DNA of 64,000 nucleotides. It comes from Escherichia coli. Its GTDB lineage: Bacteria > Pseudomonadota > Gammaproteobacteria > Enterobacterales > Enterobacteriaceae. Location of the stretch: assembly GCF_022846255.1 (NCBI RefSeq), contig NZ_AP025682.1; one strand, 5' to 3'. Shown here one piece after another: positions 10,677-56,850 of the stretch (the stretch's first letter is position 1; each line of letters opens with the position of its first letter). Below the pieces are notes generated by a model, which saw nothing but the letters and a program-made list of their open reading frames with translations, ran no database searches and was not told the origin of the DNA. Made by a program: the position numbers and the translations under genes.

Positions 10677-13600
10677 TTACGCCTTCTCGATGTTGACTAA
10701 GAACGCTTTATATTCCGGCGTTTGCGAGTTTGCATCACCGACATTCGGCGTCAGAGTGTTAGCGATATAACCTTTACGCGCGACACCCTCAAAGCCCCAG
10801 TGGATCGGAATACCCACCGTTTCAACCTGCTGACCGTTTACATTCAGCGGTTTCAGACGGCGCGTTACCACCGCCACCGCGCGGATAAAGCCACGCTTGC
10901 TTGAGACAGTGACACGATCGCCATTATTAATGCCTTTCGCCGCCGCCAGCGTTTCGCTGATTTCCACAAACTGTTCCGGCTGAGCAATTGCGTTGAGCAA
11001 CGCGTGCTTGGTCCAGGTGTGGAAGTGCTCGGTCAGACGATAGGTCGTACCCACATACGGGAACTGCTCTTTTTTACCCATCCGCAGCGCGTCTTGTTCA
11101 TACAGACGAACGACCGGGTTAGACACCACGTTCGGATGCAGCGGGTTAGTGCCCAGCGGCGTTTCAATCGGCTCGTAGTGTTCCGGGAACGGACCTTCCG
11201 CCATTTTGTTGATGGCAAACAGGCGTCCCATCCCTTCCGGCTGCATGATAAACGGTCCGGTTGGTGTACCTGGCGCGGCATTGCCGAAGTCCGGAATATC
11301 GTTACCCGTCCACTTGCTGCCGTTCCACTGAATCAGCATCCGTTTCGGATCCCACGGTTTACCGTTGATATCCGCCGAAGCACGGTTGTAGAGTACGCGA
11401 CGGTTGAGCGGCCACGCCCAGGCCCATCCCAGCGTATTCCCCAGACCAGATGGGTCAGAGTTATCGCGGTTAGCCATCTGGTTGCCCTGCTCTGTCCAGC
11501 TACCGGTGTAGATCCAGCAAGACGATGCGGTTGTACCGTCATCACGCAGATGCGCAAAGCTACTCAGCAACTGACCTTTCTTCGCAATCAGCACGCCATT
11601 GGCATCATAGAGATCTTCCAGCGCGTAGCCGTTGTTCTCTTTCGCTACTTCGTCAGATTGCGGTTCGTGCGGCTGCTTGTAGTTCCAGCTCATCTTCATC
11701 AGCGGTTCTACGCCTTTACCACCCTCGGCCTGGTACAGCTCGCGCAGATGATGGTAGATACCCGCCAGAATTTCGCCGTCGTTACGTGCTTCGCCCGGCG
11801 CGTCCTGACCTTTCCAGTGCCACTGCAACCAGCGACCGGAGTTAGCGATAGAACCATCTTCTTCAGCAAAGCAGGTCGAAGGCAGACGGAATACTTCAGT
11901 CTGAATAGATGCCGGATCGACATCGTTCGACTCGCCGTGGTTCTGCCAGAAGGTAGAGGTTTCAGTCACCAGCGGATCGATAACCACCATGTACTTCAGT
12001 TTGCTCAGGCAGCTCACCACTTTGTTTTTGTCCGGGAAGGACGCAACCGGGTTAAAGCCCTGGCAGAAATAACCGGTGACTTTGCCTTCGTCCATCATGT
12101 TGAAATACTTGATGACGTCGTAGGTCTGGTCCCACTTCGGCAGCCAGTCGTAGCCCCAGTTGTTCTCTTTCTGCGCGGCATCGCCGTAGAAAGATTTCAT
12201 CAGGCTAACGAAAAACTTCGGATAGTTGCTCCAGTAGTTCACCTGATCAGCCAGCGTCGCTTTCGGCGTGTTCGCTTCCAGATACGACTGCAAATCAACC
12301 TGTTTTTCTGACGGCAGCGTCAGATAACCTGGCAGGCTGGTAGAGAGCAGGCCTAAGTCAGTCAGGCCCTGAATGTTGGAGTGACCACGCAATGCGTTCA
12401 CGCCGCCACCGGCCATACCCATGTTACCGAGCAGCAACTGGATCATCGCCATCGTACGGATGTTCTGCGCACCCACGGTGTGCTGCGTCCAGCCCAGCGC
12501 GTACAGGAAGGTGGTTGTGCGATCCGGTGCGCTGGTGGAGGCCAGCACTTCACACACTTTCAGGAAGTCGGCTTTTGGCGTACCGCAAATGTTTTCTACT
12601 ACGTCCGGCGTGTAGCGGGAAACGTGCGCTTTCAGCAGATTCCATACACAGCGCGGATGAGTCAGCGTGTCATCGCGTTTCGCATAGCCGTTTTCATCGA
12701 ACTGATAGTTCCAGGACGACTTATCGTATTGACGTTTTTCAGCGTCGTAGCCGCTGAACAGACCGTCTTCGAAAGCAAAATCATCACGCACCAGCAGGCT
12801 GGCGTTGGTGTAATGCTTAACGTATTCGGCGTTGATTTTGTTGTTTTCGATCAGGTAGCGCAAAACGCCAGACAGGAACGTAATGTCCGTACCGGAACGA
12901 ATAGGTGCGTAAATATCCGCCACAGAAGCGGTACGCGTAAAACGGGGATCGACAACGATCAAGGTTGCATCGTTGTTGTTTTTCGCTTCCATCGCCCAGC
13001 GGAAACCGACGGGATGCGCTTCAGCAGCGTTACCGCCCATCACCATTACGACGTTAGCGTTTTTGATATCCACCCAGTGGTTGGTCATCGCACCGCGACC
13101 AAATGTTGGAGCAAGACTTGCTACCGTTGGTCCGTGTCAGACGCGCGCCTGGTTGTCTACCGCCAGCATCCCGAGGGAGCGGGCAAATTTTTGAGTCAGC
13201 ATCCCGGTTTCGTTGCTGGCACCGGAAGCACACAGCATACCGGTAGAAAGCCAACGGTTTACCGTTACGCCCTGCTCGTTCTTTTCAATAAAGTTAGCGT
13301 CACGGTCGGCTTTCATCAGCTTCGCAATACGGGAGAATGCTTCTTCCCAGCTAATGCGCTGCCATTTGTCAGAACCTGGCGCACGATATTCCGGGTAGCG
13401 CAGACGGTTTTCGCTGTTGACGTAATCCAGCAAACCGGCCCCTTTCGGGCACAGCGCACCACGGCTTACCGGATGATCCGGGTCACCTTCAATGTGATAA
13501 ATCGCTTCTCTGGCGTTTTTCGCGCCATCACCCAGGCTATACATCAATAGCCCGCAACCTACGGAACAGTATGTGCAGGTGTTACGGATCTCTTTCGCGC

Positions 13601-26441: not shown

Positions 26442-28418
26442 ATGCAGCTTAATCATATCGTTAAAAGTCTGCTAATAACGGGATTATTCACCACCAGTTC
26501 TTTACCTCTCCTCGCGGCGGAAGCTCCTAAAGACGCCACCGCAGCCACGCAACAAGCAAACAATTTACTCTACAACCAGTTGCCGTTTGCCGATAACACT
26601 GACTTTACTGATGCCCATAAAGGTTTTATTGCCCCTATCCCTCAAGACGTGATTAAGGGCGAACAAGGGAATGTTATCTGGGATCCACAACATTACGCTT
26701 TTATCAAAGAAGGCGATAAAGCCCCTGATACGGTGAATCCGAGTTTATGGCGTCAGGCGCAACTGATAAATATCAGCGGGTTATTCGAAGTAACTGAAGG
26801 TGTCTATCAGATTCGCAATCTCGATCTATCAAATATGACCATCATTGAAGGCAAAGAGGGTATTACCGTCGTTGATCCCCTTGTTTCAGCAGAAACAGCC
26901 AAAGTGGGTATGGATCTCTATTACAAAAATCGCGGCAAAAAACCGGTAGTGGCGGTTATCTATACACACAGTCATGTCGATCACTACGGTGGTGTTCGTG
27001 GCGTAATTGATGAAGCTGACGTTAAATCAGGCAAAGTTAAAATCTATGCGCCAGCCGGATTTTTGGAGGAAGCCGTTTCCGAAAACATCATGGCTGGCAA
27101 TGTTATGAGCCGACGAGCCAGTTATATGTATGGCAACTTATTGAAACCTGATGTTAAAGGCCAGGTGGGGGCTGGACTGGGAACGACTACTTCAGCAGGA
27201 ACAGTCACGTTGATTGCTCCTACTAACTACATCACCAAAACCGGACAAATAGAAACTATTGACGGGTTGACTTATGATTTCCTGATGGCGCCAGGTTCTG
27301 AAGCGCCTTCTGAAATGCTGTGGTTTATTGAAGAAAAGAAACTGATCGAAACCGCTGAAGATGTCACGCACACCCTTCATAACACCTATTCGCTGCGTGG
27401 GGCTAAAATTCGCCAACCGCTGCCGTGGTCAAAATATATTAATGAAGCTCTCAATTTGTGGGGTGATAAAGCCGAGATTATTCTCGCTCAACATCACTGG
27501 CCAACCTGGGGCAACGATAACGTGGTCAAACTGCTTAAAAGCCAGCGTGATTTGTATCGTTACATCAATGATCAAACTCTGCGCATGGCTAATCAAGGGA
27601 TGACCCGTGATGAAATTGCCGCAAACTTTAAACTGCCCTCTTCACTGGCTAACACCTGGGCGAATCGCGGCTATTACGGTTCGGTAAGTCATGACGTGAA
27701 AGCAACTTACGTGCTTTATCTCGGCTGGTTTGATGGTAACCCCGCGACGCTTGATGAACTGCCGCCAGAAGAAGGCGCAAAAAAATTCGTCGAGTATATG
27801 GGCGGTGCTGATGCCATTTTACAGAAAGCCAAACAGGATTATGACCAGGGTAATTTCCGCTGGGTTGCCCAAGTTGTTAGTAAGGTGGTGTTTGCCGATC
27901 CAAACAACCAGGCAGCGAGAGATCTGGAAGCTGATGCGCTTGAGCAGTTAGGCTATCAGGCTGAATCTGGGCCGTGGCGTAATTTCTATCTCACTGGTGC
28001 ACAGGAATTGCGTAATGGCGTACAAAAATTACCAACACCAAATACTGCCAGCCCAGACACCGTGCGTGCGATGACGCCGGAGATGTTCTTTGATTATCTT
28101 GCCGTCCATATTAATGGTGAGAAAGCGGCAGATGCCAAAACCGTGTTGAATTTCGATTTTGGTGAAGATGGCGGCACCTATAAAGTGGAGCTTGAAAATG
28201 GTGTTCTCAATCATACCGCTGGTGTAGAGGCTTCGGATGCTGATGCCACTATCACTCTGTCTCGTGATGTATTGAACAAAATTGTACTGAAAGAAGAGAC
28301 GCTGAAAGAAGCCACGGCCAAAGGAGATGTCAAAATTACTGGCAATGCGGAAAAACTCAACGAGCTGTTAGGTTATATGGATAATTTTGAATTTTGGTTC
28401 AATATAGTGACACCATAA
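26442..28418 (+). CDS. secreted alkyl/aryl-sulfatase-like metallo-beta-lactamase-fold hydrolase
   Basis: 658 aa with N-terminal signal peptide (..SLPLLAAEAP) and metal-binding motif HSHVDHYGG; SdsA1/YjcS-like architecture; not at this position in K-12 as I recall. Confidence 0.75.
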   Translation: MQLNHIVKSLLITGLFTTSSLPLLAAEAPKDATAATQQANNLLYNQLPFADNTDFTDAHKGFIAPIPQDVIKGEQGNVIWDPQHYAFIKEGDKAPDTVNPSLWRQAQLINISGLFEVTEGVYQIRNLDLSNMTIIEGKEGITVVDPLVSAETAKVGMDLYYKNRGKKPVVAVIYTHSHVDHYGGVRGVIDEADVKSGKVKIYAPAGFLEEAVSENIMAGNVMSRRASYMYGNLLKPDVKGQVGAGLGTTTSAGTVTLIAPTNYITKTGQIETIDGLTYDFLMAPGSEAPSEMLWFIEEKKLIETAEDVTHTLHNTYSLRGAKIRQPLPWSKYINEALNLWGDKAEIILAQHHWPTWGNDNVVKLLKSQRDLYRYINDQTLRMANQGMTRDEIAANFKLPSSLANTWANRGYYGSVSHDVKATYVLYLGWFDGNPATLDELPPEEGAKKFVEYMGGADAILQKAKQDYDQGNFRWVAQVVSKVVFADPNNQAARDLEADALEQLGYQAESGPWRNFYLTGAQELRNGVQKLPTPNTASPDTVRAMTPEMFFDYLAVHINGEKAADAKTVLNFDFGEDGGTYKVELENGVLNHTAGVEASDADATITLSRDVLNKIVLKEETLKEATAKGDVKITGNAEKLNELLGYMDNFEFWFNIVTP

Positions 28419-28432
28419 ATTTACTGCATACC

Positions 28433-28455
28433 GGGCAGGTATCCTGCCCTTTTTT
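28433..28455 (+). terminator. Rho-independent terminator after the sulfatase gene
   Basis: gggcagg-tat-cctgccc hairpin followed by a T6 run. Confidence 0.6.
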
Positions 28456-28464
28456 GGTTAAAAA

Positions 28465-29562
28465 ATGGCTGAACGAAGAAAAACGCATCACTCATGGAAA
28501 ACCCGCCGCGATATGGTTATTCGCGGCATGACGATTAGTTTGCCATGGTTTGCTTTTATCAATGTCAGTTTTGCATTGATAATTTTGCTGCGCCGTGTTC
28601 TGTTTAATGACCTTACTCCACCCTGGTTAAATGAAAAAAGCCTTATACATTCTATTGATATATCTGCAACGGGTATTCTGCTGATTTGCAGTGGTTTACT
28701 ACTCATCCCTCGGCAAAAAACATTACCTATCCAGGTGCTATTAGTTGCCCTGAGCCTGCTATGGTCATGGTGTAGTTATCACTTTATTGCGTACTGGACG
28801 CTGCAGTTTGCTTATCCACTATGTGTATTATTAATGCTTAGTGGCGTTGTCGCACTTTATTTCCATACCCCATCATTGCTCGCATTTGTCATTCCCTTAT
28901 GGTTCACCACTCCAATAGCGAGTCTTATGCTTAATCAACAGATCAATATTCATTTTGCTGTTGTATGGTGTATTTTTTCACTGGCGCTATATGGTGGGCG
29001 ACTCATTTTGTTACGTTGGTTTGAAGAAGCATGGGTACAAAACAGTTATAACAACCAGTTAATTAATCGCCTTGATGCATTAGCACATCGCGATCCTTTA
29101 ACTGGGATAGCAAACCGACGTGCAATGAACAGTATCTTACACGACGCGATGGATAACGGCGGGTCATTTGCTCTTATTATGCTGGATGTCGATTTTTTTA
29201 AACGTTACAACGACACTTACGGGCATCCTGCTGGGGATCGTTGTCTAATACAAGTTGCCGACGCTCTACAGCGTTCAACTCGCCAGTCGGAGGATGTTGT
29301 TGTCCGTTATGGTGGCGAAGAGTTTGCCATCATACTTTTTAATGCAACATTGCCGGAAGCAGAGACGGTAGCAGCCAGAGTGAAGCAAGAACTTAAACTG
29401 GCAGCTATCCCACATCAGGCATCTGCTGTTAATGCATTCGTTACGGTTAGTCAGGGGATTACCTGTTCTGCTCCCGCAAAAACGGCTGAACAAATTATTT
29501 CAGATGCCGACGCTGCGTTATACCGGGCGAAAGAAAGTGGGCGAAATCGATGGGCTTTATAA
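28465..29562 (+). CDS. membrane-anchored diguanylate cyclase (GGDEF domain)
   Basis: 365 aa: about 190-aa N-terminal region with several predicted TM helices, then GGDEF domain with active-site RYGGEEF; precise start codon uncertain (several in-frame Met). Confidence 0.8.
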   Translation: MAERRKTHHSWKTRRDMVIRGMTISLPWFAFINVSFALIILLRRVLFNDLTPPWLNEKSLIHSIDISATGILLICSGLLLIPRQKTLPIQVLLVALSLLWSWCSYHFIAYWTLQFAYPLCVLLMLSGVVALYFHTPSLLAFVIPLWFTTPIASLMLNQQINIHFAVVWCIFSLALYGGRLILLRWFEEAWVQNSYNNQLINRLDALAHRDPLTGIANRRAMNSILHDAMDNGGSFALIMLDVDFFKRYNDTYGHPAGDRCLIQVADALQRSTRQSEDVVVRYGGEEFAIILFNATLPEAETVAARVKQELKLAAIPHQASAVNAFVTVSQGITCSAPAKTAEQIISDADAALYRAKESGRNRWAL

Positions 29563-29589
29563 GCATTAGGGGACTGGACAGATTACGTC

Positions 29590-30328
29590 TCTCCTCGCTT
29601 AACAAGGGCTGACGGAGGGTAATAATTGTCTATAGCTATCTTCTTAGCGATGTCTTTCTGGTATCACATTGGATCGGTGCAATTATTTTTCCTTTAATAC
29701 CCATTATGTTAAGAAATTCAGAACCAGCTGTAATCTCATTGTTTTTTTCATTCGTCTTGATCTTCCAAGGAATCTGACTGTGCATTATTGAGAACACACT
29801 AATAACGTGAATCGCTCCCTTGCGACGACTCTTGTCATAAGAGTACCGGAGCGTTTTTCCATCAATTGCAATGACGTCTTTATCATCTGAAGAATGGCAG
29901 TCAAGCATCCAGTTAATAAAGCACTCATGAAATTTTTCAGGACTGATACAGGATACAACTCTGGCAATGGTATCGTGAACAGGAATACCATTATCAAAAT
30001 CACCATATTGCTTCAAAAAATCGAGATGTGTTTCCCCAAAATCCTCTATATCTTCCCAGCCTTCTGCACCCGAAATAACGACACAAATAGTCAACAGTAG
30101 AATATCCGATAATTTATGCTCCACTTTCCAGGCTTGTCTGTAATCGGGGATAATAGAAATATGTTCCATCAATTTTTTAAGTTCCATTTTGTTCTCCTTA
30201 ATTATGTAAAGAGTATTTGATCATGTATAAGCAATAAAAAACAGCTTTAGGTAATGAGGAATATCTCAATTTTTAAACATAAAATGCGAATTATTTAGTA
30301 CAAAAAAGCAGCGTTACGTGATCTTTCC
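29590..30328 (-). mobile_element. truncated, diverged ISAs1-family (H-repeat) element copy
   Basis: 183-aa ORF (29636..30187) is similar but not identical to the N-terminal part of the H-repeat transposase at 31727..32554, then diverges; its 5' flank (about 30190..30328) repeats 32560..32695. Confidence 0.6.
29636..30187 (-). pseudogene. ISAs1-family transposase, truncated copy
   Basis: N-terminal about 150 aa align with the second copy, C-terminal tail diverges and terminates early. Confidence 0.65.
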
Positions 30329-30348
30329 ATGGAAAAGAGAGTAATACA

Positions 30349-30364
30349 CTGATTTTTAACGCAG
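30349..30364 (+). promoter_or_regulatory. candidate LexA (SOS) box upstream of the symE-like gene
   Basis: CTG-N10-CAG (ctgatttttaacgcag) with AT-rich spacer about 65 bp upstream of the ATG; deviates from CTGT/ACAG at two conserved positions; K-12 symE is SOS-regulated. Confidence 0.25.
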
Positions 30365-30427
30365 ATTGCCAGTGCTACCAACACTGACAATCTGCTCACC
30401 ACAAGCAACTAACAGAGGTAGTTAATC

Positions 30428-30747
30428 ATGGCTGAACACGATATTACGCCAGAAGTCGCCATTTCCAAAACACAGCGCCGCTATAAAGTCGGCTATGTCA
30501 GAGCCCGCCACATAAACAGCAAACCACGTACTACTCACGACACCCCAGCCTGAACCTTAAGGGCGACTGGCTGAAAGAGGCCGGATTTGATACCGGACGG
30601 GGTGTCACGGTGAAGATTTCGGAGGGGTGCCTGACCATCATCGCTGACAGTGACGAGGTGCAGGAACTGCGGGAGGAACTTTATCAGGTTAAACAGGTGG
30701 TTAAGGGGATGCGGAACGGGATGTTTAGTGTGCTGAACGAGAATTAA
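30428..30747 (+). pseudogene. symE-like type I toxin gene (AbrB-fold), apparently frameshifted
   Basis: 41 codons from ATG 30428 (MAEHDITPEVAISKTQRRYKVGYVRARHINSKP...) end at TGA about 30551; the SymE core LNLKGDWLKEAGFDTGRGVTVKISEGCLTII... continues in the -1 frame to TAA about 30745; restoring one C near 30550 would fuse them. Confidence 0.6.
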
Positions 30748-30797
30748 ATAATAAAAAAGCCGGGGAGATTTAAAATCTTCCCGGCTTTCTTTATCAT

Positions 30798-31100
30798 CTA
30801 AAAAGGTAATAATCCTCTAATAGGAGAAAATTTTGTAATATCAATACCTTGTAATTTAAAGTAATTAAAAGCATCTTCTATATTGGAAAACGCACTAATT
30901 TCTTCAGTTGCATAATCTTCGAACACTTCCATTTTATTTTCTGGTATTTTGAAAAAATAGGTATTGTATTTTTCATCCTGTTTTTTAATGGCATATTGGA
31001 AAAAATAACTTTCACCATTTATTTCCTTTATCTCATCAAAACCTCTAACCTTACCATTCTCTATAGCAACAATTAATTTTTCAATAGACAAATCAACCAT
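30798..31100 (-). CDS. putative immunity protein for the upstream toxin-like ORF
   Basis: 100-aa acidic, low-GC ORF; its ATG overlaps the stop of the upstream ORF (ATGgtTGA), the usual toxin-immunity arrangement; no sequence family recognised. Confidence 0.45.
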   Translation of the reverse strand: MVDLSIEKLIVAIENGKVRGFDEIKEINGESYFFQYAIKKQDEKYNTYFFKIPENKMEVFEDYATEEISAFSNIEDAFNYFKLQGIDITKFSPIRGLLPF

Positions 31101-31440
31101 CTATATCTATCCTCACCATTGTCCCATCAGAACGTTTAATATTTATATGAGGCAAAGAACCATGCCCTGTGCCTTTATGGTCATCATGACCATATACACG
31201 ACCAGTATTAGAATCAATAGGGTAATCTTTCCTATAACGGACAGTACCATCTCTTTTCTTAAATTGTTCCATCTTATGTTTTTTTCTAATACCGGCGGCA
31301 TCCTGCGAACTGATCCCTCTTACTTTTTGAGCATCAGGAAAGGCCTCCATCAATAAATCATGGGCTTCCTGTTTTGATTTAACTGTGACAACGGTTCCTT
31401 GAGGCCCCAGGGCAAGATTACGAAAGCCCGCTCCCCGCAA
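31093..31440 (-). CDS. putative orphan polymorphic-toxin C-terminal domain (3' fragment of an IS-disrupted gene)
   Basis: Track ORF begins inside the ISAs1 end with a TTG; first ATG gives [10 protein letters not shown]... (about 31350); C-terminal His-rich motif [21 protein letters not shown] is reminiscent of HNH/beta-beta-alpha-Me nuclease toxins; low GC. Confidence 0.4.
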
Positions 31441-32695
31441 GGACTGACGCCAGATAGTTTCTGTCCATGGCTGCTTTTCGCATCTTACGTCTTAACCCTG
31501 CCTTGAATACCTTATCATTCGTCAAAATATTAATAGCGATGTGCCGTATCCCTGAAAATAATTCTGCTGCATTTCCTCTTCTTATTTTGCAGTCGTCTTC
31601 ATTCATTACCACGTCCAGACGCCAGTGCAGCTTATTCTCCACGTGCCAGTGGTTTCGGATTGCTGTGGCGAACTTCTCTGCGGTTAAATCAGCAGAACTG
31701 ATATAATATCTGACCGTCATTTCTGGCTATTTCTTTTGTTCTGCTATTATGGACCGAAAGGAGACTGCCACGCATAATTTCTTCAGTCCTTTCCATTCAA
31801 ACGTGAAATCAATAAGTTCATCAGGGACATCGCAAACAATATGAAGACGGATTTCTTCTCTGCCGTGACTTTTTTCACTAATTGCGTAACTGTCATGCTC
31901 TGGATTATTCAATTCTTTCAGCGGAAATTTTTCCTCGAAGGCTTTATTTAGCCGCCCCTGGTTTCCTTTTACAGCGAATAAATAATCACCTCCCTGTTTT
32001 TGTATCTTCTCTGCAATATCTTTCTGGCAACCCATCGCATCAGTTGTGATGATTTTTCCTTTAATATCCAGCATGTTAAGAAGTTCAGGGATAGCTGTAA
32101 TTTCATTGGATTTCTCATCCGTCCTGATCTGTCCGATGACCAGACTGTGCATTGTTGAGAACGCACTAATGACATGAATCGCTCCCCTGCGGCGACTCTT
32201 GTCATAAGAATGTCGGAGCGTTTTTCCATCAATTGCAATAACGTCTTTATCATCTGAAGAATGGCAGTCACGCATCCAGTTAATAAAGCACTCGTGAAAT
32301 TTTGCAGGACTGATACAGGATACAACTCTGGCAATGGTATCGTGAACAGGAATACCATTTTCAAAATCACCATATTGCTTCAAAAAATCGAGATGTGTTT
32401 CCCCAAAACCCTCTATATCTTCCCAGCCTTCTGCACCAGAAATAACGGCACAAATAGTCAACAGTAGAATATCCGATAATTTATGTTCCACTTTCCAGGC
32501 TTGTCTGTAATCGGGGATAATAGAAATATGTTCCATCAATTTTTTAAGTACCATTTTGTTCTCCTTAATTATGTAAGGAGTATTTGATCATGTATAAGCA
32601 ATAAAAAACAGCTTCAGGTAATAAGGAATATCTCAATTTTTAAACATAAAATGCGAATTATTTAGTACAAAAAAGCAGCGTTACGTGATCTTTCC
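31400..32695 (-). mobile_element. ISAs1-family (H-repeat) insertion sequence
   Basis: Transposase reading frame of about 379 codons (31418..32554) with the [26 protein letters not shown]-terminal signature; upstream boundary set where the two copies' flanks diverge (after ...gtgatctttcc). Confidence 0.7.
31418..32554 (-). pseudogene. ISAs1-family transposase, split by a frameshift near 31720-31727
   Basis: 275-aa N-terminal ORF (31727..32554) and 100-aa C-terminal ORF (31418..31720) are contiguous in different frames. Confidence 0.7.
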
Positions 32696-32871
32696 CTGGT
32701 TATCGCTGTTCTTTCCCCTTGACCAGGCAAATATTTTTCATTATGGATCCATACCTTGCTATAATCAATTGTATTCTCAAAAATCGATCTGGCCAATGTT
32801 AATTCACCAGATGTCATTCTCCTTAATGACATATCCTTTCCCCTGGAAATAATATCTTTCAGATAAAACAC
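32662..32871 (-). pseudogene. 5' fragment of a gene truncated by the ISAs1 insertion; N-terminus resembles DUF4157-type domains
   Basis: 69-aa ORF whose last about 12 codons are encoded by IS-end sequence; motif LARSIFENTIDYSKVWIH resembles the E..fG.DfS.VRVH N-terminal signature of DUF4157 (a recollection, not verified). Confidence 0.35.
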
Positions 32872-33769
32872 AAACGCTCTTTGATGTTCAACATTCCCAC
32901 TTTATACAGTATTGATGGCATCATCTTCATAGAAAATGAAATCAAAGCAAGTTATCAACGTTTCCCATTACGATTTCTTAACATTAATTCTCAGCATTTT
33001 TATTAATCTATTTTCAATATCAATAACCGATGCAAATGATTACGCAGTTAACATAATCCTTATCAATTGATTAATATCTGTAAACGCTACCGCCCCACCC
33101 TGATATCTTAATCTGCACATAGCAATCTTAACGTTATGCCCCATACATTAGTAATGTAAATTAAGAATTCGGAATATATCAAATTCACTTCATAAATTAA
33201 TATCGGGAATGATATACACATTAATTATATTGAAGTAATGGTTTAAGAGTTGTAATGACCATGGAACAGGACTAATTCCAGAAACTCCTGTTGGGCAATA
33301 GCGCGTTTATCATCCTACATGCCTCTTACATTTTTTAGCCTTTTCTTTAACGTCAGCAATTGGCTCATTTAATCAGCAATGGTATTGGTATTTGGCGTAT
33401 TACCCCTGAAACCCGTCATGTGCTAGCACCTCACTATTCAATGAGCCAACCACGCCAGTGTCCACTGCAACCACTGGCGTTCAGAGCGACGAACGAGTGG
33501 CGCAAGAGTAGGACTGCCGTCGGGCATCATCAAACCAATAGTTGTTGTTTCCGTCAAAATTTCATCAGGTTGCTATTTGGTTGCCGGCCGCCTTTATCCC
33601 CACATATTTATAGCGGGATTATTTTGCATCGTTACACGATAAAAGGTAGGATTCTGCGCCGACAGTTATACCCATAAAGAATAATGGTGAATCTTGTCAT
33701 CGCCAGGATGAATAAACATTGTTCATGGCAACTTATATGACTTTTTCATTAAAGCAATCAGGGAGAGCA

Positions 33770-35269
33770 ATGAGTAAACACGACACCGACACTTCAGATC
33801 AACACGCCGCGAAACGCCGCTGGCTTAATGCCCACGAAGAGGGGTATCACAAAGCGATGGGCAATCGCCAGGTACAGATGATCGCCATTGGCGGCGCGAT
33901 TGGCACCGGCTTGTTTTTAGGTGCAGGAGCCCGACTGCAAATGGCGGGGCCAGCACTGGCACTGGTCTATTTAATCTGCGGCCTGTTTTCATTTTTTATT
34001 CTGCGTGCATTGGGTGAGCTGGTGCTACACCGCCCTTCCAGTGGCAGTTTTGTCTCTTATGCCCGTGAGTTTTTAGGAGAGAAAGCCGCTTACGTTGCAG
34101 GCTGGATGTACTTCATCAACTGGGCGATGACGGGGATTGTCGATATTACCGCCGTCGCTCTGTATATGCATTACTGGGGTGCGTTTGGCGGCGTGCCGCA
34201 GTGGGTCTTTGCGCTCGCTGCGCTGACCATCGTTGGTACCATGAATATGATTGGTGTGAAATGGTTTGCGGAGATGGAGTTCTGGTTTGCGCTTATTAAA
34301 GTGCTCGCCATCGTGACCTTTTTGGTCGTGGGTACAGTGTTCCTCGGTAGCGGTCAGCCGCTGGATGGCAACGCCACTGGCTTTCATTTAATTACCGATA
34401 ACGGCGGCTTTTTCCCCCACGGTTTGCTGCCTGCGCTGGTGTTGATTCAGGGCGTAGTGTTTGCTTTTGCCTCCATTGAAATGGTGGGTACAGCGGCCGG
34501 AGAATGTAAAGATCCGCAGACCATGGTGCCTAAAGCGATTAACAGTGTGATTTGGCGTATTGGTCTGTTTTACGTCGGCTCCGTGGTGTTGCTGGTTATG
34601 TTATTGCCGTGGAGCGCGTATCAGGCGGGGCAAAGTCCGTTCGTGACGTTTTTCTCTAAACTGGGTGTGCCATATATCGGCAGCATTATGAACATTGTGG
34701 TGCTGACCGCTGCCCTCTCCAGCCTGAATTCAGGTCTGTACTGCACCGGGCGTATTCTGCGCTCGATGGCGATGGGCGGTTCCGCACCGAGTTTTATGGC
34801 GAAAATGAGTCGTCAGCATGTGCCGTATGCCGGGATTCTGGCGACACTGGTTGTGTATGTCGTCGGCGTATTCCTCAACTATCTGGTGCCGTCGCGCGTA
34901 TTTGAGATTGTGTTGAACTTCGCGTCGCTGGGAATCATCGCTTCATGGGCGTTTATCATCGTGTGCCAGATGCGCCTGCGTAAAGCGATTAAAGAAGGCA
35001 AAGCAGCGGATGTCAGTTTTAAACTGCCTGGCGCGCCCTTCACTTCCTGGCTGACATTACTGTTTTTACTGAGTGTCCTTGTGCTGATGGCGTTCGATTA
35101 CCCGAACGGGACTTATACTATCGCGGCGCTGCCGTTTATCGGTATTCTGCTGGTTATAGGCTGGTTTGGTGTGCGCAAACGCGTTGCTGAAATTCACAGC
35201 ACTGCGCCAGTCGTCGAGGAAGATGAAGAACAACAGGAAATTGTGTTTAAGCCTGAAACGGCGAGTTAA
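33770..35269 (+). CDS. ansP: L-asparagine permease (APC family)
   Basis: 499-aa product beginning MSKHDTDTSDQHAAKRRWLNAHEEGYHK; track ORF starts upstream at 33719. Confidence 0.95.
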   Translation: MSKHDTDTSDQHAAKRRWLNAHEEGYHKAMGNRQVQMIAIGGAIGTGLFLGAGARLQMAGPALALVYLICGLFSFFILRALGELVLHRPSSGSFVSYAREFLGEKAAYVAGWMYFINWAMTGIVDITAVALYMHYWGAFGGVPQWVFALAALTIVGTMNMIGVKWFAEMEFWFALIKVLAIVTFLVVGTVFLGSGQPLDGNATGFHLITDNGGFFPHGLLPALVLIQGVVFAFASIEMVGTAAGECKDPQTMVPKAINSVIWRIGLFYVGSVVLLVMLLPWSAYQAGQSPFVTFFSKLGVPYIGSIMNIVVLTAALSSLNSGLYCTGRILRSMAMGGSAPSFMAKMSRQHVPYAGILATLVVYVVGVFLNYLVPSRVFEIVLNFASLGIIASWAFIIVCQMRLRKAIKEGKAADVSFKLPGAPFTSWLTLLFLLSVLVLMAFDYPNGTYTIAALPFIGILLVIGWFGVRKRVAEIHSTAPVVEEDEEQQEIVFKPETAS

Positions 35270-52599: not shown

Positions 52600-53136
52600 T
52601 TAACTGCGCGGGTAATGGATGAGGGAATGAAAATGTACGGTTTGCTCCCCACCATTACGATAGACATGCGTGACGTCTGCAGCAAATCGAACGCCTTCCC
52701 CACAATTAAGGCTCTGCCATTCACCATCAACACACAGATCAAGTTGTCCATCAATGACGACGACATGTTCGATTACCCCCTTTTCATGGGGCGTCGATTC
52801 GCTTATTGCACCGGGTGCCATCTGAATCGAGAAGTGTTCAAAGCAGAGTTGTGGATCATAAGGAAACAGCGAAGTGATCACCATCGCCTGCCGTTGTGGA
52901 TCATAAACTGAAGGCGTAGAGGACTGCGGCGGAGAAATAAATGTTGAAAATGGCACGTTCAACCCGGTGGCAATTTTCCATAATGTCGCGACCGTCGGGC
53001 TGGATTCATTACGCTCAATCTGCCCTAACATCGCTTTAGAAACGCCCGTCGCTTCTGCCAGTCGCGAAAGACTCCAGCCGCGCTGCTGACGTAGTTGTTT
53101 AAGTGTGGTGGATAAAAAGCGAGCGAGATTTTCCAT
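52600..53136 (-). CDS. ydcN: XRE-HTH / cupin-domain transcriptional regulator (SutR)
   Basis: 178 aa, N-terminal HTH and C-terminal cupin. Confidence 0.85.
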   Translation of the reverse strand: MENLARFLSTTLKQLRQQRGWSLSRLAEATGVSKAMLGQIERNESSPTVATLWKIATGLNVPFSTFISPPQSSTPSVYDPQRQAMVITSLFPYDPQLCFEHFSIQMAPGAISESTPHEKGVIEHVVVIDGQLDLCVDGEWQSLNCGEGVRFAADVTHVYRNGGEQTVHFHSLIHYPRS

Positions 53137-53227
53137 GCGACTCCTCCGGCAAAACGGAAGTTTATCACTTGTGCGTTATAACGGACAAATGCTACGGTAC
53201 CTGTACGTTATAACGCACGAGGTGACT

Positions 53228-54403
53228 ATGCGTCTGTTTTCTATTCCTCCACCCACGCTACTGGCGGGGTTTCTGGCGGTATTAATTGGCTACGCCAGTT
53301 CAGCGGCAATAATCTGGCAAGCAGCGATTGTCGCCGGAGCCACCACTGCACAAATCTCTGGCTGGATGACGGCGCTGGGGCTGGCAATGGGCGTCAGTAC
53401 GCTGACTCTGACATTATGGTATCGCGTACCTGTTCTCACCGCATGGTCAACGCCTGGCGCGGCTTTGTTGGTCACCGGATTACAGGGACTAACACTTAAC
53501 GAAGCCATCGGCGTTTTTATTGTCACCAACGTGTTAATAGTCCTCTGCGGCATAACGGGACTCTTTGCTCGTCTGATGCGCATTATTCCGCACTCGCTTG
53601 CGGCGGCAATGCTTGCCGGGATTTTATTACGTTTTGGTTTACAGGCGTTTGCCAGTCTGGATGGTCAATTTACGTTGTGTGGCAGTATGTTGCTGGTATG
53701 GCTGGCAACCAGGGCCGTTGCGCCGCGCTATGCGGTAATTGCCGCGATGATTATTGGGATCGTGATCGTTATCGCGCAAGGTGACGTTGTCACAACTGAT
53801 GTTGTCTTTAAACCCGTTCTCCCCACTTATATTCCCCCTGATTTTTCGTTTGCTCACAGTCTGAGCGTTGCACTCCCCCTTTTTCTGGTGACGATGGCAT
53901 CGCAAAACGCACCGGGTATCGCAGCAATGAAAGCAGCCGGATATTCGGCTCCTGTTTCGCCATTAATTATATTTACTGGATTGCTGGCACTGGTTTTTTC
54001 CCCTTTCGGCGTTTATTCCGTCGGTATTGCGGCAATCACCGCGGCTATTTGCCAAAGCCCGGAAGCGCATCCGGATAAAGATCAACGTTGGCTGGCAGCT
54101 GCCGTTGCAGGCATTTTCTATTTGCTCGCAGGTCTGTTTGGTAGTGCCATTACCGGGATGATGGCTGCCCTGCCCGTAAGTTGGATCCAGATGCTGGCAG
54201 GTCTGGCGCTGTTGAGTACCATTGGCGGCAGTTTGTATCAGGCGCTGCATAATGAGCGTGAGCGCGACGCGGCGGTGGTGGCATTTCTGGTAACGGCAAG
54301 TGGATTGACGCTGGCCGGGATTGGTTCTGCGTTTTGGGGATTAATTGCCGGAGGCGTTTGTTACGTGGTGTTGAATTTAATCGCTGACAGAAACCGATAT
54401 TGA
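53228..54403 (+). CDS. ydcO: BenE-family membrane transporter
   Basis: 391-aa product beginning MRLFSIPPPTLLAGFLAVLIGYASS; track ORF extends upstream to 53105. Confidence 0.9.
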   Translation: MRLFSIPPPTLLAGFLAVLIGYASSAAIIWQAAIVAGATTAQISGWMTALGLAMGVSTLTLTLWYRVPVLTAWSTPGAALLVTGLQGLTLNEAIGVFIVTNVLIVLCGITGLFARLMRIIPHSLAAAMLAGILLRFGLQAFASLDGQFTLCGSMLLVWLATRAVAPRYAVIAAMIIGIVIVIAQGDVVTTDVVFKPVLPTYIPPDFSFAHSLSVALPLFLVTMASQNAPGIAAMKAAGYSAPVSPLIIFTGLLALVFSPFGVYSVGIAAITAAICQSPEAHPDKDQRWLAAAVAGIFYLLAGLFGSAITGMMAALPVSWIQMLAGLALLSTIGGSLYQALHNERERDAAVVAFLVTASGLTLAGIGSAFWGLIAGGVCYVVLNLIADRNRY

Positions 54404-54408
54404 CATCC

Positions 54409-54430
54409 TCCACGCCCTGAAGGACGTGGA
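54409..54430. repeat. IS200/IS605-type subterminal hairpin (tnpB-proximal end)
   Basis: tccacg-ccctgaagga-cgtgga stem-loop just after the ydcO stop. Confidence 0.45.
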
Positions 54431-54442
54431 TCCCTGCTACGT

Positions 54443-55651
54443 TCAGGCTGTCGCCTGAATCATTTCGGTGGGTTCCTGCTTCAACGGGCGGCCTGACTGC
54501 ACCATCTCTCCACAGGCAAGAACGGCGTGCCCCGCCGCTAAAATGTTACGAGCGCCATTTACATCGGCGTTCGCTGTATATCCACATACCTGGCATCTGA
54601 ATTTACTTTGTGACAGGCGGTTCTCTTTCGCTGTATGACCACAGTACGCGCAACGCTGGCTTGTATACGCTGGCGGAACAGCAAGCACCTGACCGCCACG
54701 CCAGAGCTGCTTGTACTCAAGCTGGCGGCGCATTTCATACCAGCCCTGATCCAGTATCGAACGGTTTAAACCTGATTTTGCCCGGACATTGCGCCCCGGC
54801 TGGCTGACCGTACCCGCTGCTGACTTTGACATGTTGCTGACCTTCAAATCCTCAATGACTATCATTGCGTGGTTTTTGCTGACGGCCGTTGTGACTTTGT
54901 GAAGGTAGTCCCTGCGGATATTTGCGATACAGGAATGCAGTCGCTGTATTTTGCGTTTCTGCTTCTGCCAGTTGTTGCTGAATTTGACCTTGCGGCTTAA
55001 CTGTCGCTGAAGTCTCGCCAGCGTCTTCTGGTTTTTCTGAAAACTGTTTACAGGCTCAAAGACTGTGCCATCTGACAGCGTGGCGAGTTTAGCCACGCCA
55101 GCATCCAGCCCGACCATTGATGCTGAAGGGTGAGCCGGAGTGGATACTTCACTTTCTGTCTGAATACTGATGTACCACTTACCGCAGGACTGGCTGACAG
55201 TGACATTTTTCACAACACCCGTGACCTGACGGCTATTCCGGTAGCGCATCCAGCCCAGTTTCGGCAGAAAAATACGGCTGTTTTCCTGATCGAGCTTAAC
55301 GCCCTGCGGGTAGCGGAATGCATCATTCTGTCCCCGCTTTTTGAATCGGGGAAAAGCAGCCCGCTTCCGGAAGAAGTTTTTGTAAGCCCGCTCAAGGTCT
55401 TTCAGTGACTGTTGCAATGGCTGTGAGGGAGAATCTTTAAGCCATTGCGTTTCAGTGGCGTTTTTCCACTCAACCAGCCAGGAAGCCATTTTCCCGTAAG
55501 GGATGTATTTATTACCGGCCTCATGATTCTCATTCTGAAGCGCCAGAGCACGATTGAAAACGAAACGACATGCGCCTGCGAAGCGCCTCATTTCACACTC
55601 CTGTTGACCACCTGGTCTTAACTGGAATTTAAATGCCTGTAATCGTTTCAC
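54443..55651 (-). CDS. insQ: IS609 TnpB / OrfB (RuvC-like, RNA-guided nuclease family)
   Basis: 402-aa track ORF (alternative start at [10 protein letters not shown], 55591) with a C-terminal Cys cluster CAYCGH...CQVCG and OrfB_IS605 features. Confidence 0.85.
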
Positions 55652-55658
55652 AGGTCAA

Positions 55659-56150
55659 ATGATACTTTGGTCTGTGAAAAAAGAAACCGATATCCGGCGT
55701 GGAAGGCATTGTGTTTTCCTGATGCATGTTCAGCTGGTCTTTGTCCCAAATACCGACGCCAGATTTTTGACCATGACGCGACAGAAAAACTACGCACTTA
55801 CTATTCAAATGTATGTGCTGATTTTGAAGCTGAACTGGTTGAAATGGATGGCGAACCAGATCACGTCCATTTGTTAATTAACTATCCTCCCAAACTGGCG
55901 ATATCCAGTCTGGTAAACAGCCTCAAAGGCGTATCGGGTAGGTGACTGCGACGAGATCGACCAGATATTGCAGTCAGGTATTACTACAAAGGCGTTTTGT
56001 GGAGTCCTGGCTATTTTGCCAGTAGCTGCGGAGGTGCGCCAATATCCGTCATCCGCCAATACATTGAACAACAGCAAACACCTGGTCAGGTGGAAAACCG
56101 CGCCTTATATCCCCGCCCTGAAGGACGGGGTTTTACGGCGCACCGGATAA
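55659..56150 (+). pseudogene. IS200-like TnpA (Y1 HUH transposase) split over three reading frames
   Basis: Frame A HVQLVFVPNTD, frame B EAELVEMDGEPDHVHLLINYPPK (HUH motif), frame C YYKGVLWSPGYFASSCGGAPISVIRQYIEQQ (catalytic Tyr region); at least two frameshifts. Confidence 0.75.
56111..56130. repeat. IS200/IS605-type subterminal hairpin (tnpA-proximal end)
   Basis: ccccg-ccctgaagga-cgggg, same loop as the hairpin at 54409. Confidence 0.45.
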
Positions 56151-56176
56151 AAAGCGCCATCTAACGATGGCGCGTC
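56150..56176 (-). terminator. Rho-independent terminator after ydcL
   Basis: On the minus strand: gcgccatcg-tta-gatggcgc followed by T-run. Confidence 0.5.
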
Positions 56177-56181
56177 TGGAA

Positions 56182-56850
56182 CTACTTTTTGTTAACGTCA
56201 AACATGGTGGCATCGGTCGCCATGTCATCAATAACTTGTTTAATATTTTCGAAAGCCATTGGCGTACTTTCGTTATTCAGGTCTTTACCTTCGCCCTGAC
56301 GAACGACTTTGATAACCGGTTTATTAGTCGCTGCATCAATCAGCTCACCTTCAAAATACAAGCGAGTATCCATGGTTCGGTGGCCTGTAGCCATTTGCGT
56401 CCCCGCTACCACTAATGCAACAGGAACCACTTCATAGAATTGCAGCCCTTCTTTACTGGTATCTACACCGGTAATGGCCCCACGGAAAATCAGACTACGC
56501 GGCCCAGCGGTGGTAACCAGTGGTTTACGCTGCGCTATCGCTTCTTTCATTTCGGTGTTGGTATAGTTCAAAATTTTATCCAGAACTTTCTGCCCTACCT
56601 GGGTAGAAGGTTTCGGTACCGGATAATAAGTGATTGGGTTCCAGACGATGCTGTCATATTTGCTTTGATCAAAACTCGGGTCTACCCAACGTAAAACAGG
56701 TTTACCTGTTGCCGAGGTTGTTTCTTTTAAATCAGAGTAATTGTTTAAAAAACCAGAATATTTATCTGGCTGGGTGATTTTAGAGGCACAACCAGACAGA
56801 GCCAACAAGCCGCATAAAGCTGCAACTTTCGCAAATGATGTGGTACGCAT
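56182..56850 (-). CDS. ydcL: lipoprotein (DUF3313)
   Basis: 222 aa with lipobox LALSGC. Confidence 0.9.
   Translation of the reverse strand: MRTTSFAKVAALCGLLALSGCASKITQPDKYSGFLNNYSDLKETTSATGKPVLRWVDPSFDQSKYDSIVWNPITYYPVPKPSTQVGQKVLDKILNYTNTEMKEAIAQRKPLVTTAGPRSLIFRGAITGVDTSKEGLQFYEVVPVALVVAGTQMATGHRTMDTRLYFEGELIDAATNKPVIKVVRQGEGKDLNNESTPMAFENIKQVIDDMATDATMFDVNKK

Follow-up and report, generated by a model that had tools for sequence, protein, structure and literature searches.

A non-autonomous IS609 element in Escherichia coli combines a mutated transposase gene with an uninterrupted insQ (tnpB) and a predicted guide-RNA scaffold

Analysis of a 64,000-nt stretch of an Escherichia coli genome (RefSeq assembly GCF_022846255.1, contig NZ_AP025682.1; the whole stretch is hereafter called the window) identified the element between the convergent genes ydcO and ydcL as IS609, a member of the IS200/IS605 family, with a mutated transposase gene (tnpA) beside an uninterrupted gene for the putative RNA-guided nuclease TnpB, named insQ in E. 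coli. The reading that we prefer, at a probability of about 0.6, is that of a non-autonomous IS605-family element whose homing module of TnpB and guide RNA (omega RNA), as judged from the sequence, would be intact and selectively maintained, and idle in this genome. Across E. coli, insQ is under purifying selection while tnpA decays. The features on which this reading draws are given below; the top strand of the element is the tnpB sense strand (the minus strand of the window), so that the left end (LE) lies at the 56146 side and the right end (RE) at the 54400 side.

54400 to 56146, minus strand: complete IS609, 1747 bp, delimited by comparison with an empty site and with copies at three other sites.
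54443 to 55651, minus strand: tnpB/insQ, an uninterrupted open reading frame of 402 aa with a GTG start.
54400 to 54548, minus strand: predicted guide-RNA (omega RNA) scaffold, 149 nt, covering the last 106 nt of tnpB (stop included) and RE; found with covariance model R1.
54384 to 54399, minus strand: predicted 16-nt guide UAUCGGUUUCUGUCAG, from the DNA flanking RE, antisense to the 3′ end of ydcO.
56147 to 56151, minus strand: target site and predicted target-adjacent motif (TAM) 5′-TTTAT, directly 5′ of LE.
55659 to 56089, plus strand: tnpA pseudogene (yncK in K-12) for a Y1/HUH transposase, placed by alignment and translation against the intact IS609 tnpA of O157.
54409 to 54430, minus strand: RE subterminal hairpin, a 9-bp imperfect stem with a 4-nt loop, TCCACGCCC-TGAA-GGACGTGGA.
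56111 to 56130, minus strand: LE subterminal hairpin, an 8-bp imperfect stem with the same loop as in RE, CCCCGCCC-TGAA-GGACGGGG.
55659 to 55664, minus strand: possible -10 box TATCAT of a putative leaderless tnpB promoter, 7 nt upstream of the GTG start.

The product of insQ looks competent as a nuclease and is, by its sequence features, a putative RNA-guided endonuclease. Its residues 3 to 376 align to the solved ISDra2 TnpB (8bf8, 8exa and 8h1j; phmmer E ~2e-54), its score with the NCBIfam model guided_TnpB (NF040570) is 381.7 bits (cutoff 100), and the Pfam domains PF12323, PF01385 and PF07282 are recorded on near-identical proteins. The RuvC triad D183/E267/D363 aligns with the catalytic residues of ISDra2 (8bf8). 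A C-terminal zinc finger of the form CxxC...CxxC is present as C334/C337 and C353/C356. We take the catalytic residues of ISDra2 TnpB to be numbered D191/E278/D361. A recent study (PMC12781874, 2026) uses ten functionally critical TnpB residues as a filter, and all ten have counterparts in InsQ at a uniform offset of +2 (N33, G181, D183, E267, L269, C334, C337, C353, C356 and D363); the same study reports purification of an 'IS609' TnpB among nine candidates, and we found no individual result for it there. An initial annotation of this stretch had described the 402-aa TnpB frame as uninterrupted and had pointed to the RuvC residues, to be compared with characterised TnpB proteins, as telling; the frame is confirmed, the triad is present and its loss was not seen.

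The 3′ end of tnpB and RE together carry a conserved RNA structure, the predicted guide-RNA scaffold. A scan of the whole window placed no Rfam family on it at the gathering threshold. The best matches of a permissive Rfam scan, used as pointers only, all fall at the 3′ end of tnpB, on the minus strand: HgcC at 54390 to 54506 (22.2 bits vs. a threshold of 50), sot0042 at 54409 to 54570 (17.0 vs. 88) and RAGATH-18 at 54473 to 54516 (25.4 vs. 44.9). For covariation we used 80 homologous loci from other species (Enterobacterales, Burkholderiales and others, 58–94% protein identity), obtained by a search of genome contigs; a protein-homologue search was dropped as a source, as only near-identical E. 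coli proteins were among the 120 matches listed. In all 68 of these loci in which RE could be located, it ends in (G)GAGGA(T)G(T)CAA, with GGAGGATGTCAA kept, and gives way to unrelated sequence.

An alignment (A4) of the last 180 nt of 49 homologous loci and the window was given an RNAalifold consensus and one long-range helix from a single-sequence fold. Across its 50 sequences, 95.2% of cells in five covarying helices are paired, vs. 41–56% when the partners are slid by 1 to 3 columns; there are 135 double-change cells, vs. 9–45 in the slid controls, and none of 500 shuffles reached the observed pairing values. In the helix that lies within the coding region (alignment columns 44–48 with 54–58), exchanges between Ala and Arg codons preserve pairing. 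A hairpin of variable length that spans the stop codon forms, with covarying closing pairs, in each of the 48 sequences in which it can be delimited (47 homologues and the window), and compensatory changes occur in 7 of the 9 pairs of the RE hairpin. Every scaffold pair is formed in the window copy, whose RNA has a better fold than shuffled sequences do (z = -2.9). For covariance model R1 we used 29 homologues and left out the window together with its two nearest loci (one from an Escherichia sp., one from Citrobacter amalonaticus); the model matches the scaffold over its full length with 157.6 bits (E 6.4e-49), a score to which protein-coding conservation contributes in part, as it does not to the covariation. 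The only other R1 match with E <1 in the 64 kb is a weak partial one, of the LE hairpin to the hairpin part of the model (13 bits). The omega RNA had been expected at about 54400 to 54560 on the minus strand, with a covariance-model search across the tnpB 3′ end as the check; the location is borne out and refined to the 149-nt scaffold followed by a guide read from 54399 to 54384. One of the homologous loci, L017, lies on a 2057-bp contig labelled Streptomyces mutabilis (NZ_BMTT01000064.1), with an RE of enterobacterial type and a TnpB that shares 81% identity with that of E. coli, and is probably a contamination of that assembly.

Which DNA this RNA would address follows from the rule of Meers et al., under which the RE flank supplies the guide, the insertion motif serves as the TAM and the donor joint is the target; it places the guide at the RE flank, and we infer that the RNA carries it. 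RE flanks are unrelated between IS609 copies and between homologues. TTTAT abuts LE at four independent insertions, namely at the ydcL terminator, in a TetR gene (O157:H7), in yajI (L085 and L086) and between yfaV and yfaY (L087). The LE hairpin has the four bases AAAA on its 5′ side, which presumably suits a TTAT target under the pairing rule of IS608. TTTAT and, directly after it, the DNA that matches the guide (TATCGGTTTCTGTCAG) together reproduce the empty ydcO–ydcL allele exactly. In the window this DNA follows GTCAA instead of TTTAT, so that the element's own locus would not be self-targeted, and no other guide match and no TTTAT-preceded target was found in the 64 kb. The empty allele is common: the ydcO–ydcL junction is uninterrupted in 2048 of 5426 complete E. 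coli genomes (38%), mostly at 99–100% identity and including O157:H7 and a strain labelled SYNB1934, and it is split in ~3343 (~62%), with IS609 found in 6 of 6 split sites of a spread sample. At yajI and yfaV–yfaY, insQ is annotated as intact and tnpA as a pseudogene, and the RE flank, hence the guide, differs from site to site.

The transposase of the window copy, judged by its reading frame, is inactive. Against the intact 143-aa IS609 tnpA of an O157:H7 strain (L001, 2760 to 3191), the window gene has a 1-bp deletion between 55745 and 55746 that shifts the frame, a nonsense change from TTA to TGA at codon 96 (55943 to 55945), loss of the natural stop (TAG to CAG at 56087 to 56089) and one His to Gln change. 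Translated across the lesions it gives the Y1 (HUH) transposase of IS609, DHVHLL included, and the intact O157 homologue scores 145.7 bits with the NCBIfam model transpos_IS200 (cutoff 55). The frameshift and the codon-96 stop precede the conserved ...RQYIEQQ segment, which we take, by analogy with IS608 TnpA, to hold the catalytic tyrosine. The copy is thus incapable of autonomous transposition and is a non-autonomous member of the family, not excluded from it; an IS609 TnpA supplied from elsewhere could in principle move it, both end hairpins being perfect.

We then compared 18 copies of the ydcO–ydcL locus, namely those of the window and of K-12 and 16 more picked at regular intervals from two lists of matches. 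insQ is full length, with its catalytic residues kept, in all 18. Its segregating changes are 19 synonymous in 269 sites and 24 nonsynonymous in 937 sites, a ratio of nonsynonymous to synonymous change (dN/dS, omega) of ~0.36 (binomial p = 0.0012); ydcL gave ~0.06 in the same comparison. ydcO had been considered as the comparator and was dropped because an indel in one sequence made its value invalid. Pairwise synonymous difference (pS) in the first 12 copies is similar in insQ and ydcL (0.024 vs. 0.029), as expected for vertical co-inheritance. tnpA, on the other hand, is disrupted in 17 of the 18 copies by at least five different lesions across lineages: L96* (TGA), Y76* (TAA), a 5-bp deletion, a 1-bp deletion at 55700 and the window's own 1-bp deletion (loci compared: L003, L084 and L088–L102). 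All five disruptive events (three indels and two nonsense changes) fall in the 432 nt of tnpA and none in the 1206 nt of insQ, which at equal rates has a probability of (432/1638)^5 = 0.0013. The sole change common to all 18 copies is the lost tnpA stop codon; the codon-96 TGA was considered as the ancestral lesion of all copies at the site and rejected, since only 8 of 18 carry it. In strain PCP06021 (L088), tnpA has no internal lesion, and its C-terminally extended TnpA might still work.

These counts bear directly on an alternative that we regard as unlikely, if worth weighing closely: that the element is a slowly decaying relic, a neutral passenger frozen in place after the death of TnpA, with insQ intact through shortness of time or past constraint and with no functional ribonucleoprotein today. 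The overall omega of insQ argues against it, as does the lack of any insQ frameshift or nonsense change in the 18 copies despite a target 2.8-fold larger than tnpA, which has been knocked out independently at least five times. Nucleotide diversity in the first 12 copies is lowest in the scaffold and RE (0.007–0.008) and highest in tnpA and LE (0.016–0.019), so that the scaffold region is the least diverse of the element, again unlike a relic. Among copies sharing one tnpA lesion the ratio of nonsynonymous to synonymous changes is ~1.1 vs. a neutral ~3.5, a test blurred by the mosaic, recombined haplotypes of insQ and so not a clean one. Other observations fit a relic. The insertion does no harm where it sits, past the terminator of ydcL and at the stop codon of ydcO; the single IS609 copy of K-12 made zero transpositions in mutation-accumulation lines (PMC5009759); and the tnpA lesions are lineage-specific and may be recent, with L088 free of internal ones.

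Several further points weigh against a maintained and functional module, some of them by lending support to a relic. Singleton insQ changes taken alone (7 nonsynonymous, 4 synonymous) are indistinguishable from neutrality, and the 18 copies are related and recombining, which weakens the signal of selection. The constraint on insQ may also largely predate the death of tnpA: while TnpA was active, TnpB-proficient copies would survive and TnpB-defective ones would be lost by excision (the model of Meers et al.), which makes a historical constraint possible. The H. pylori IS608 TnpB was inactive in the assay of Meers et al., so intact motifs do not guarantee activity, and our literature search returned no transcript, protein or cleavage data for this copy. 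A generic promoter scan returned no sigma-70 promoter for tnpB. Most of 28 homologues inspected (loci L004–L078, ~1440 to 1510, set against 55649 to 55664 on the minus strand of the window) have a TATAAT-like hexamer (TATAAT, TATACT, TACAAT etc.) 6–8 nt before the tnpB start, a spacing that implies a leaderless mRNA diverging from tnpA; the start codon is ATG in 25 of the 28 and GTG in 2. E. coli IS609, the intact O157 copy included, has TATCAT and GTG in their place, a weak pairing of -10 box and start codon that suggests low expression and suits a relic. An internal ATG of insQ (M21, codon 21), preceded by AGGAG, could moreover serve as a start and yield an N-terminally truncated InsQ. The annotated tnpA ATG (55659 to 55661) lies inside the tnpB -10 box, and the start codons of the two genes are 7 bp apart.

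How a maintained TnpB–omega RNA module would act can be drawn by analogy with ISDra2 and the IS605 elements of Geobacillus, in the framework of Meers et al. Transcription of tnpB would run towards RE, probably as a leaderless mRNA, whose 3′ part would be processed to an omega RNA made of the scaffold (54548 to 54400) and ~16 nt of flank (UAUCGGUUUCUGUCAG). TnpB loaded with this RNA would cut DNA that bears 5′-TTTAT followed by a match to the guide, a target predicted only in the empty ydcO–ydcL allele, whether as the donor joint left by excision or in strains without the insertion. Repair of the double-strand break from an occupied copy would then restore or spread the element (homing). As the window copy cannot excise itself and the 64 kb hold no TTTAT-preceded match, the pair would be idle here unless TnpA acts in trans or an empty allele enters.

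A bolder proposal, which we consider doubtful, is that the transposase-dead IS609 persists in E. coli as a site-specific selfish 'allele drive' that cuts the empty allele, a perfect TTTAT plus 16-nt target present in 38% of genomes. Occupied and empty alleles would meet by conjugation, transduction or excision in trans, and the empty allele would be converted or excluded. Maintenance by such a drive, and not by transposition, would explain purifying selection on insQ beside at least five knockouts of tnpA; loss of tnpA might itself be favoured, the knockouts ending self-inflicted breaks.

Domestication of TnpB by the host, for a cellular role beyond maintenance of the transposon, is very improbable on the same evidence. 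Candidate roles are transcriptional control of the TldR type, antisense control of ydcO through a read-through RNA, and exclusion of incoming DNA. It would account for purifying selection on insQ at a fixed locus with no working transposase, and a guide-bearing transcript would indeed be antisense to the 3′ end of ydcO, whose stop lies inside the insertion sequence. Against this, InsQ keeps its RuvC triad, the guide has its sole match in the empty allele at the element's own site (a signature of selfish homing), 38% of genomes lack the element with no obvious substitute, and the pairing of dead tnpA with intact insQ at other sites with different guides speaks against one fixed host target. Domesticated proteins of the TldR type have lost the RuvC catalytic residues and aim their guide at a host promoter. 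A nuclease-dead repressor of this kind was rejected, the triad being intact and the guide matching the own empty site and not a promoter.

The ends of the element were set with strain UM146 (L002), in which the ydcO–ydcL junction has no insertion, aligned to both window junctions. The empty site reads ...CCGATA|ATAAAAAGCGCC... and the occupied junctions read CCGATA|TTGACATCC... and ...GCGCACCGG|ATAAAAAGC, which is unambiguous; comparison of the empty CCGATA|ATAAAAAGC with the occupied junctions shows no target-site duplication. IS609 copies at the three other chromosomal sites named above have identical ends, and a search for a second IS609 end within the 64-kb window found none. A TTAC at 56133 to 56136 had prompted a reading with the window plus strand as the top strand; this was ruled out, since the minus strand carries both tnpB and the conserved RE end ...GTCAA, an orientation with which the empty-site junctions agree. 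The TGA stop of ydcO (54401 to 54403) lies within the RE of IS609, and in the empty allele (L002, 1095 to 1105) ydcO stops one codon earlier, at TAA, so that YdcO of occupied strains is one residue (Tyr) longer.

Both subterminal hairpins lie on one strand in the same orientation, as fits the IS200/IS605 pattern of subterminal hairpins without terminal inverted repeats. Their outer stems differ by a compensatory change (CCACG/CGTGG in RE, CCCCG/CGGGG in LE). The RE hairpin doubles as the last stem of the guide-RNA scaffold, after which GGATGTCAA closes the element. The LE hairpin is perfect in the window and in KOr019, and has a C to T mismatch (56125 to 56127) in K-12 (L084) and 15 of the other 17 sampled copies; the window copy may therefore be a better substrate for a transposase acting in trans. 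In many homologues of Burkholderiales type (L029, L035, L040, L041, L048, L050, L053, L057, L060, L066–L068, L072, L075, L076, L080 and L082), the loop of the RE hairpin holds an insertion of 25–40 nt that is itself one or two small hairpins, with the outer stem and the GGAGGATGTCAA tail retained.

In light of these results, the initial description of an IS609-like remnant at 54404 to 56135 holds in that the element is IS609 itself, as annotated in K-12, and is corrected at its ends, which lie 4 bp and 11 bp further out. 'Remnant' overstates the decay, as the element is full length with point lesions only. 'Immobilised' is better replaced by 'non-autonomous', both end hairpins being perfect here. 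The transposase is broken in at least two places as described, although by one frameshift and one nonsense codon and not by multiple frameshifts. Both hairpins with their shared 'ccctgaagga' are retained, this shared stretch being better described as parts of 9-bp and 8-bp stems around a 4-nt loop. The two computational checks proposed at the outset, on the RuvC residues and on structure in the scaffold, both favour a nuclease–guide pair that may be functional.

The element was already known and annotated, so that the present work is a correct reading of a known IS609 and nothing new as a discovery. The same copy stands in K-12 MG1655 as 'insertion sequence:IS609' (1748 bp, 1503161 to 1504908), with yncK (b4578) as the tnpA pseudogene and insQ (b1432) as 'putative RNA-guided DNA endonuclease InsQ', and RefSeq labels the intact O157 tnpA 'IS200/IS605-like element IS609 family transposase'. 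A megablast search against the 5,426 complete E. coli genomes returned thousands with the region, annotated there as 'insQ: RNA-guided endonuclease InsQ/TnpB family protein' beside 'tnpA: IS200/IS605 family transposase'; the closest complete genome across the locus is that of strain KOr019 (99.5% identity). The order in the window is ydcO (a BenE-type transporter, 53105 to 54403, plus strand), the 402-aa frame (minus), the transposase pieces (plus), ydcL (56182 to 56850, minus) and tehB. What the analysis adds is the exact ends, the predicted TAM TTTAT, the 149-nt scaffold, the 16-nt guide, a natural target and the population constraint on insQ relative to tnpA. It is of modest interest for three things: a target prediction that is clean and can be tested, a site occupied in 62% of genomes and empty in 38%, and a tnpA that died repeatedly and independently next to an insQ left untouched. 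Were the pair active, the most-used laboratory organism would carry a native programmable TnpB system, which matters for the use of TnpB tools in E. coli, and IS609 would be a natural case of a nuclease–guide module that outlasts its transposase.

Elsewhere in the window, the Rfam scan placed an Hfq-binding small RNA of the isrA family (RF01385) at 30499 to 30617 on the minus strand (96.4 bits, above threshold). It lies in a variable region that in other E. coli holds Rhs, ISAs1 and SymE-like toxin genes; coverage of 27000 to 35000 exceeds 80% in a single complete genome. A selenocysteine insertion element, SECIS_3 (RF01989), lies at 13084 to 13142 on the minus strand (84.3 bits), presumably in a formate dehydrogenase gene.

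Among known systems the nearest is the IS609 of K-12, which has the same locus, ends, gene order and 402-aa InsQ, and a tnpA with the same codon-96 TGA and lost stop. The window copy differs from it by the extra 1-bp deletion and the His to Gln change in tnpA, by a perfect LE hairpin where K-12 has the C to T mismatch, and at 12 nucleotides of insQ. The ISDra2 element of Deinococcus radiodurans (8bf8, 8exa and 8h1j) has the same RuvC and zinc-finger residues as InsQ, a scaffold that overlaps the tnpB 3′ end and RE, and a guide from the flank; sequence similarity is moderate, and InsQ and ISDra2 TnpB differ by a 15-aa insertion after the catalytic Glu. The activity of the IS609 pair is predicted only, and its TAM would be TTTAT. 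That of ISDra2 is TTGAT.

IS608 of Helicobacter pylori, the model Y1 transposon, resembles IS609 in its subterminal hairpins on one strand, in insertion without target duplication 3′ of a short AT-rich motif, and in an RE that ends in TCAA. The pairing rule presumably holds in both elements, with AAAA and TTAT in IS609 and AAAG and TTAC in IS608. The genes tnpA and tnpB are co-directional in IS608 and divergent in IS609, where 7 bp separate their start codons, and the target motifs differ. For the scaffold, the likeness is to Rfam families HgcC (RF00062), sot0042 (RF02656) and RAGATH-18 (RF03064), for which published work reports links to the 3′ ends of tnpB genes or to guide RNAs of TnpB (PMC4615843 and PMC11061315). 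All three match precisely the scaffold, in the right orientation; the HgcC alignment takes in the RE hairpin together with the GGAGGAUGUCA tail, and the RAGATH-18 motif CCUGUGGAG...GAAGCAGGAA is present. Their scores are far below the gathering thresholds, which sets the scaffold outside those families and in the same functional class only.

The closest parallel to the proposed biology is in the ISGst elements of Geobacillus stearothermophilus (Meers et al. 2023), where tnpB-only or tnpA-defective elements occur and TnpB with its omega RNA targets the donor joint and averts loss of the element; most tnpB genes have no tnpA nearby (Meers et al. 2023). IS609 differs in that its tnpA is present and mutationally dead, and in that it forms a single species-wide polymorphism at a fixed site (62% occupied, 38% empty), whereas ISGst is a multi-copy family.

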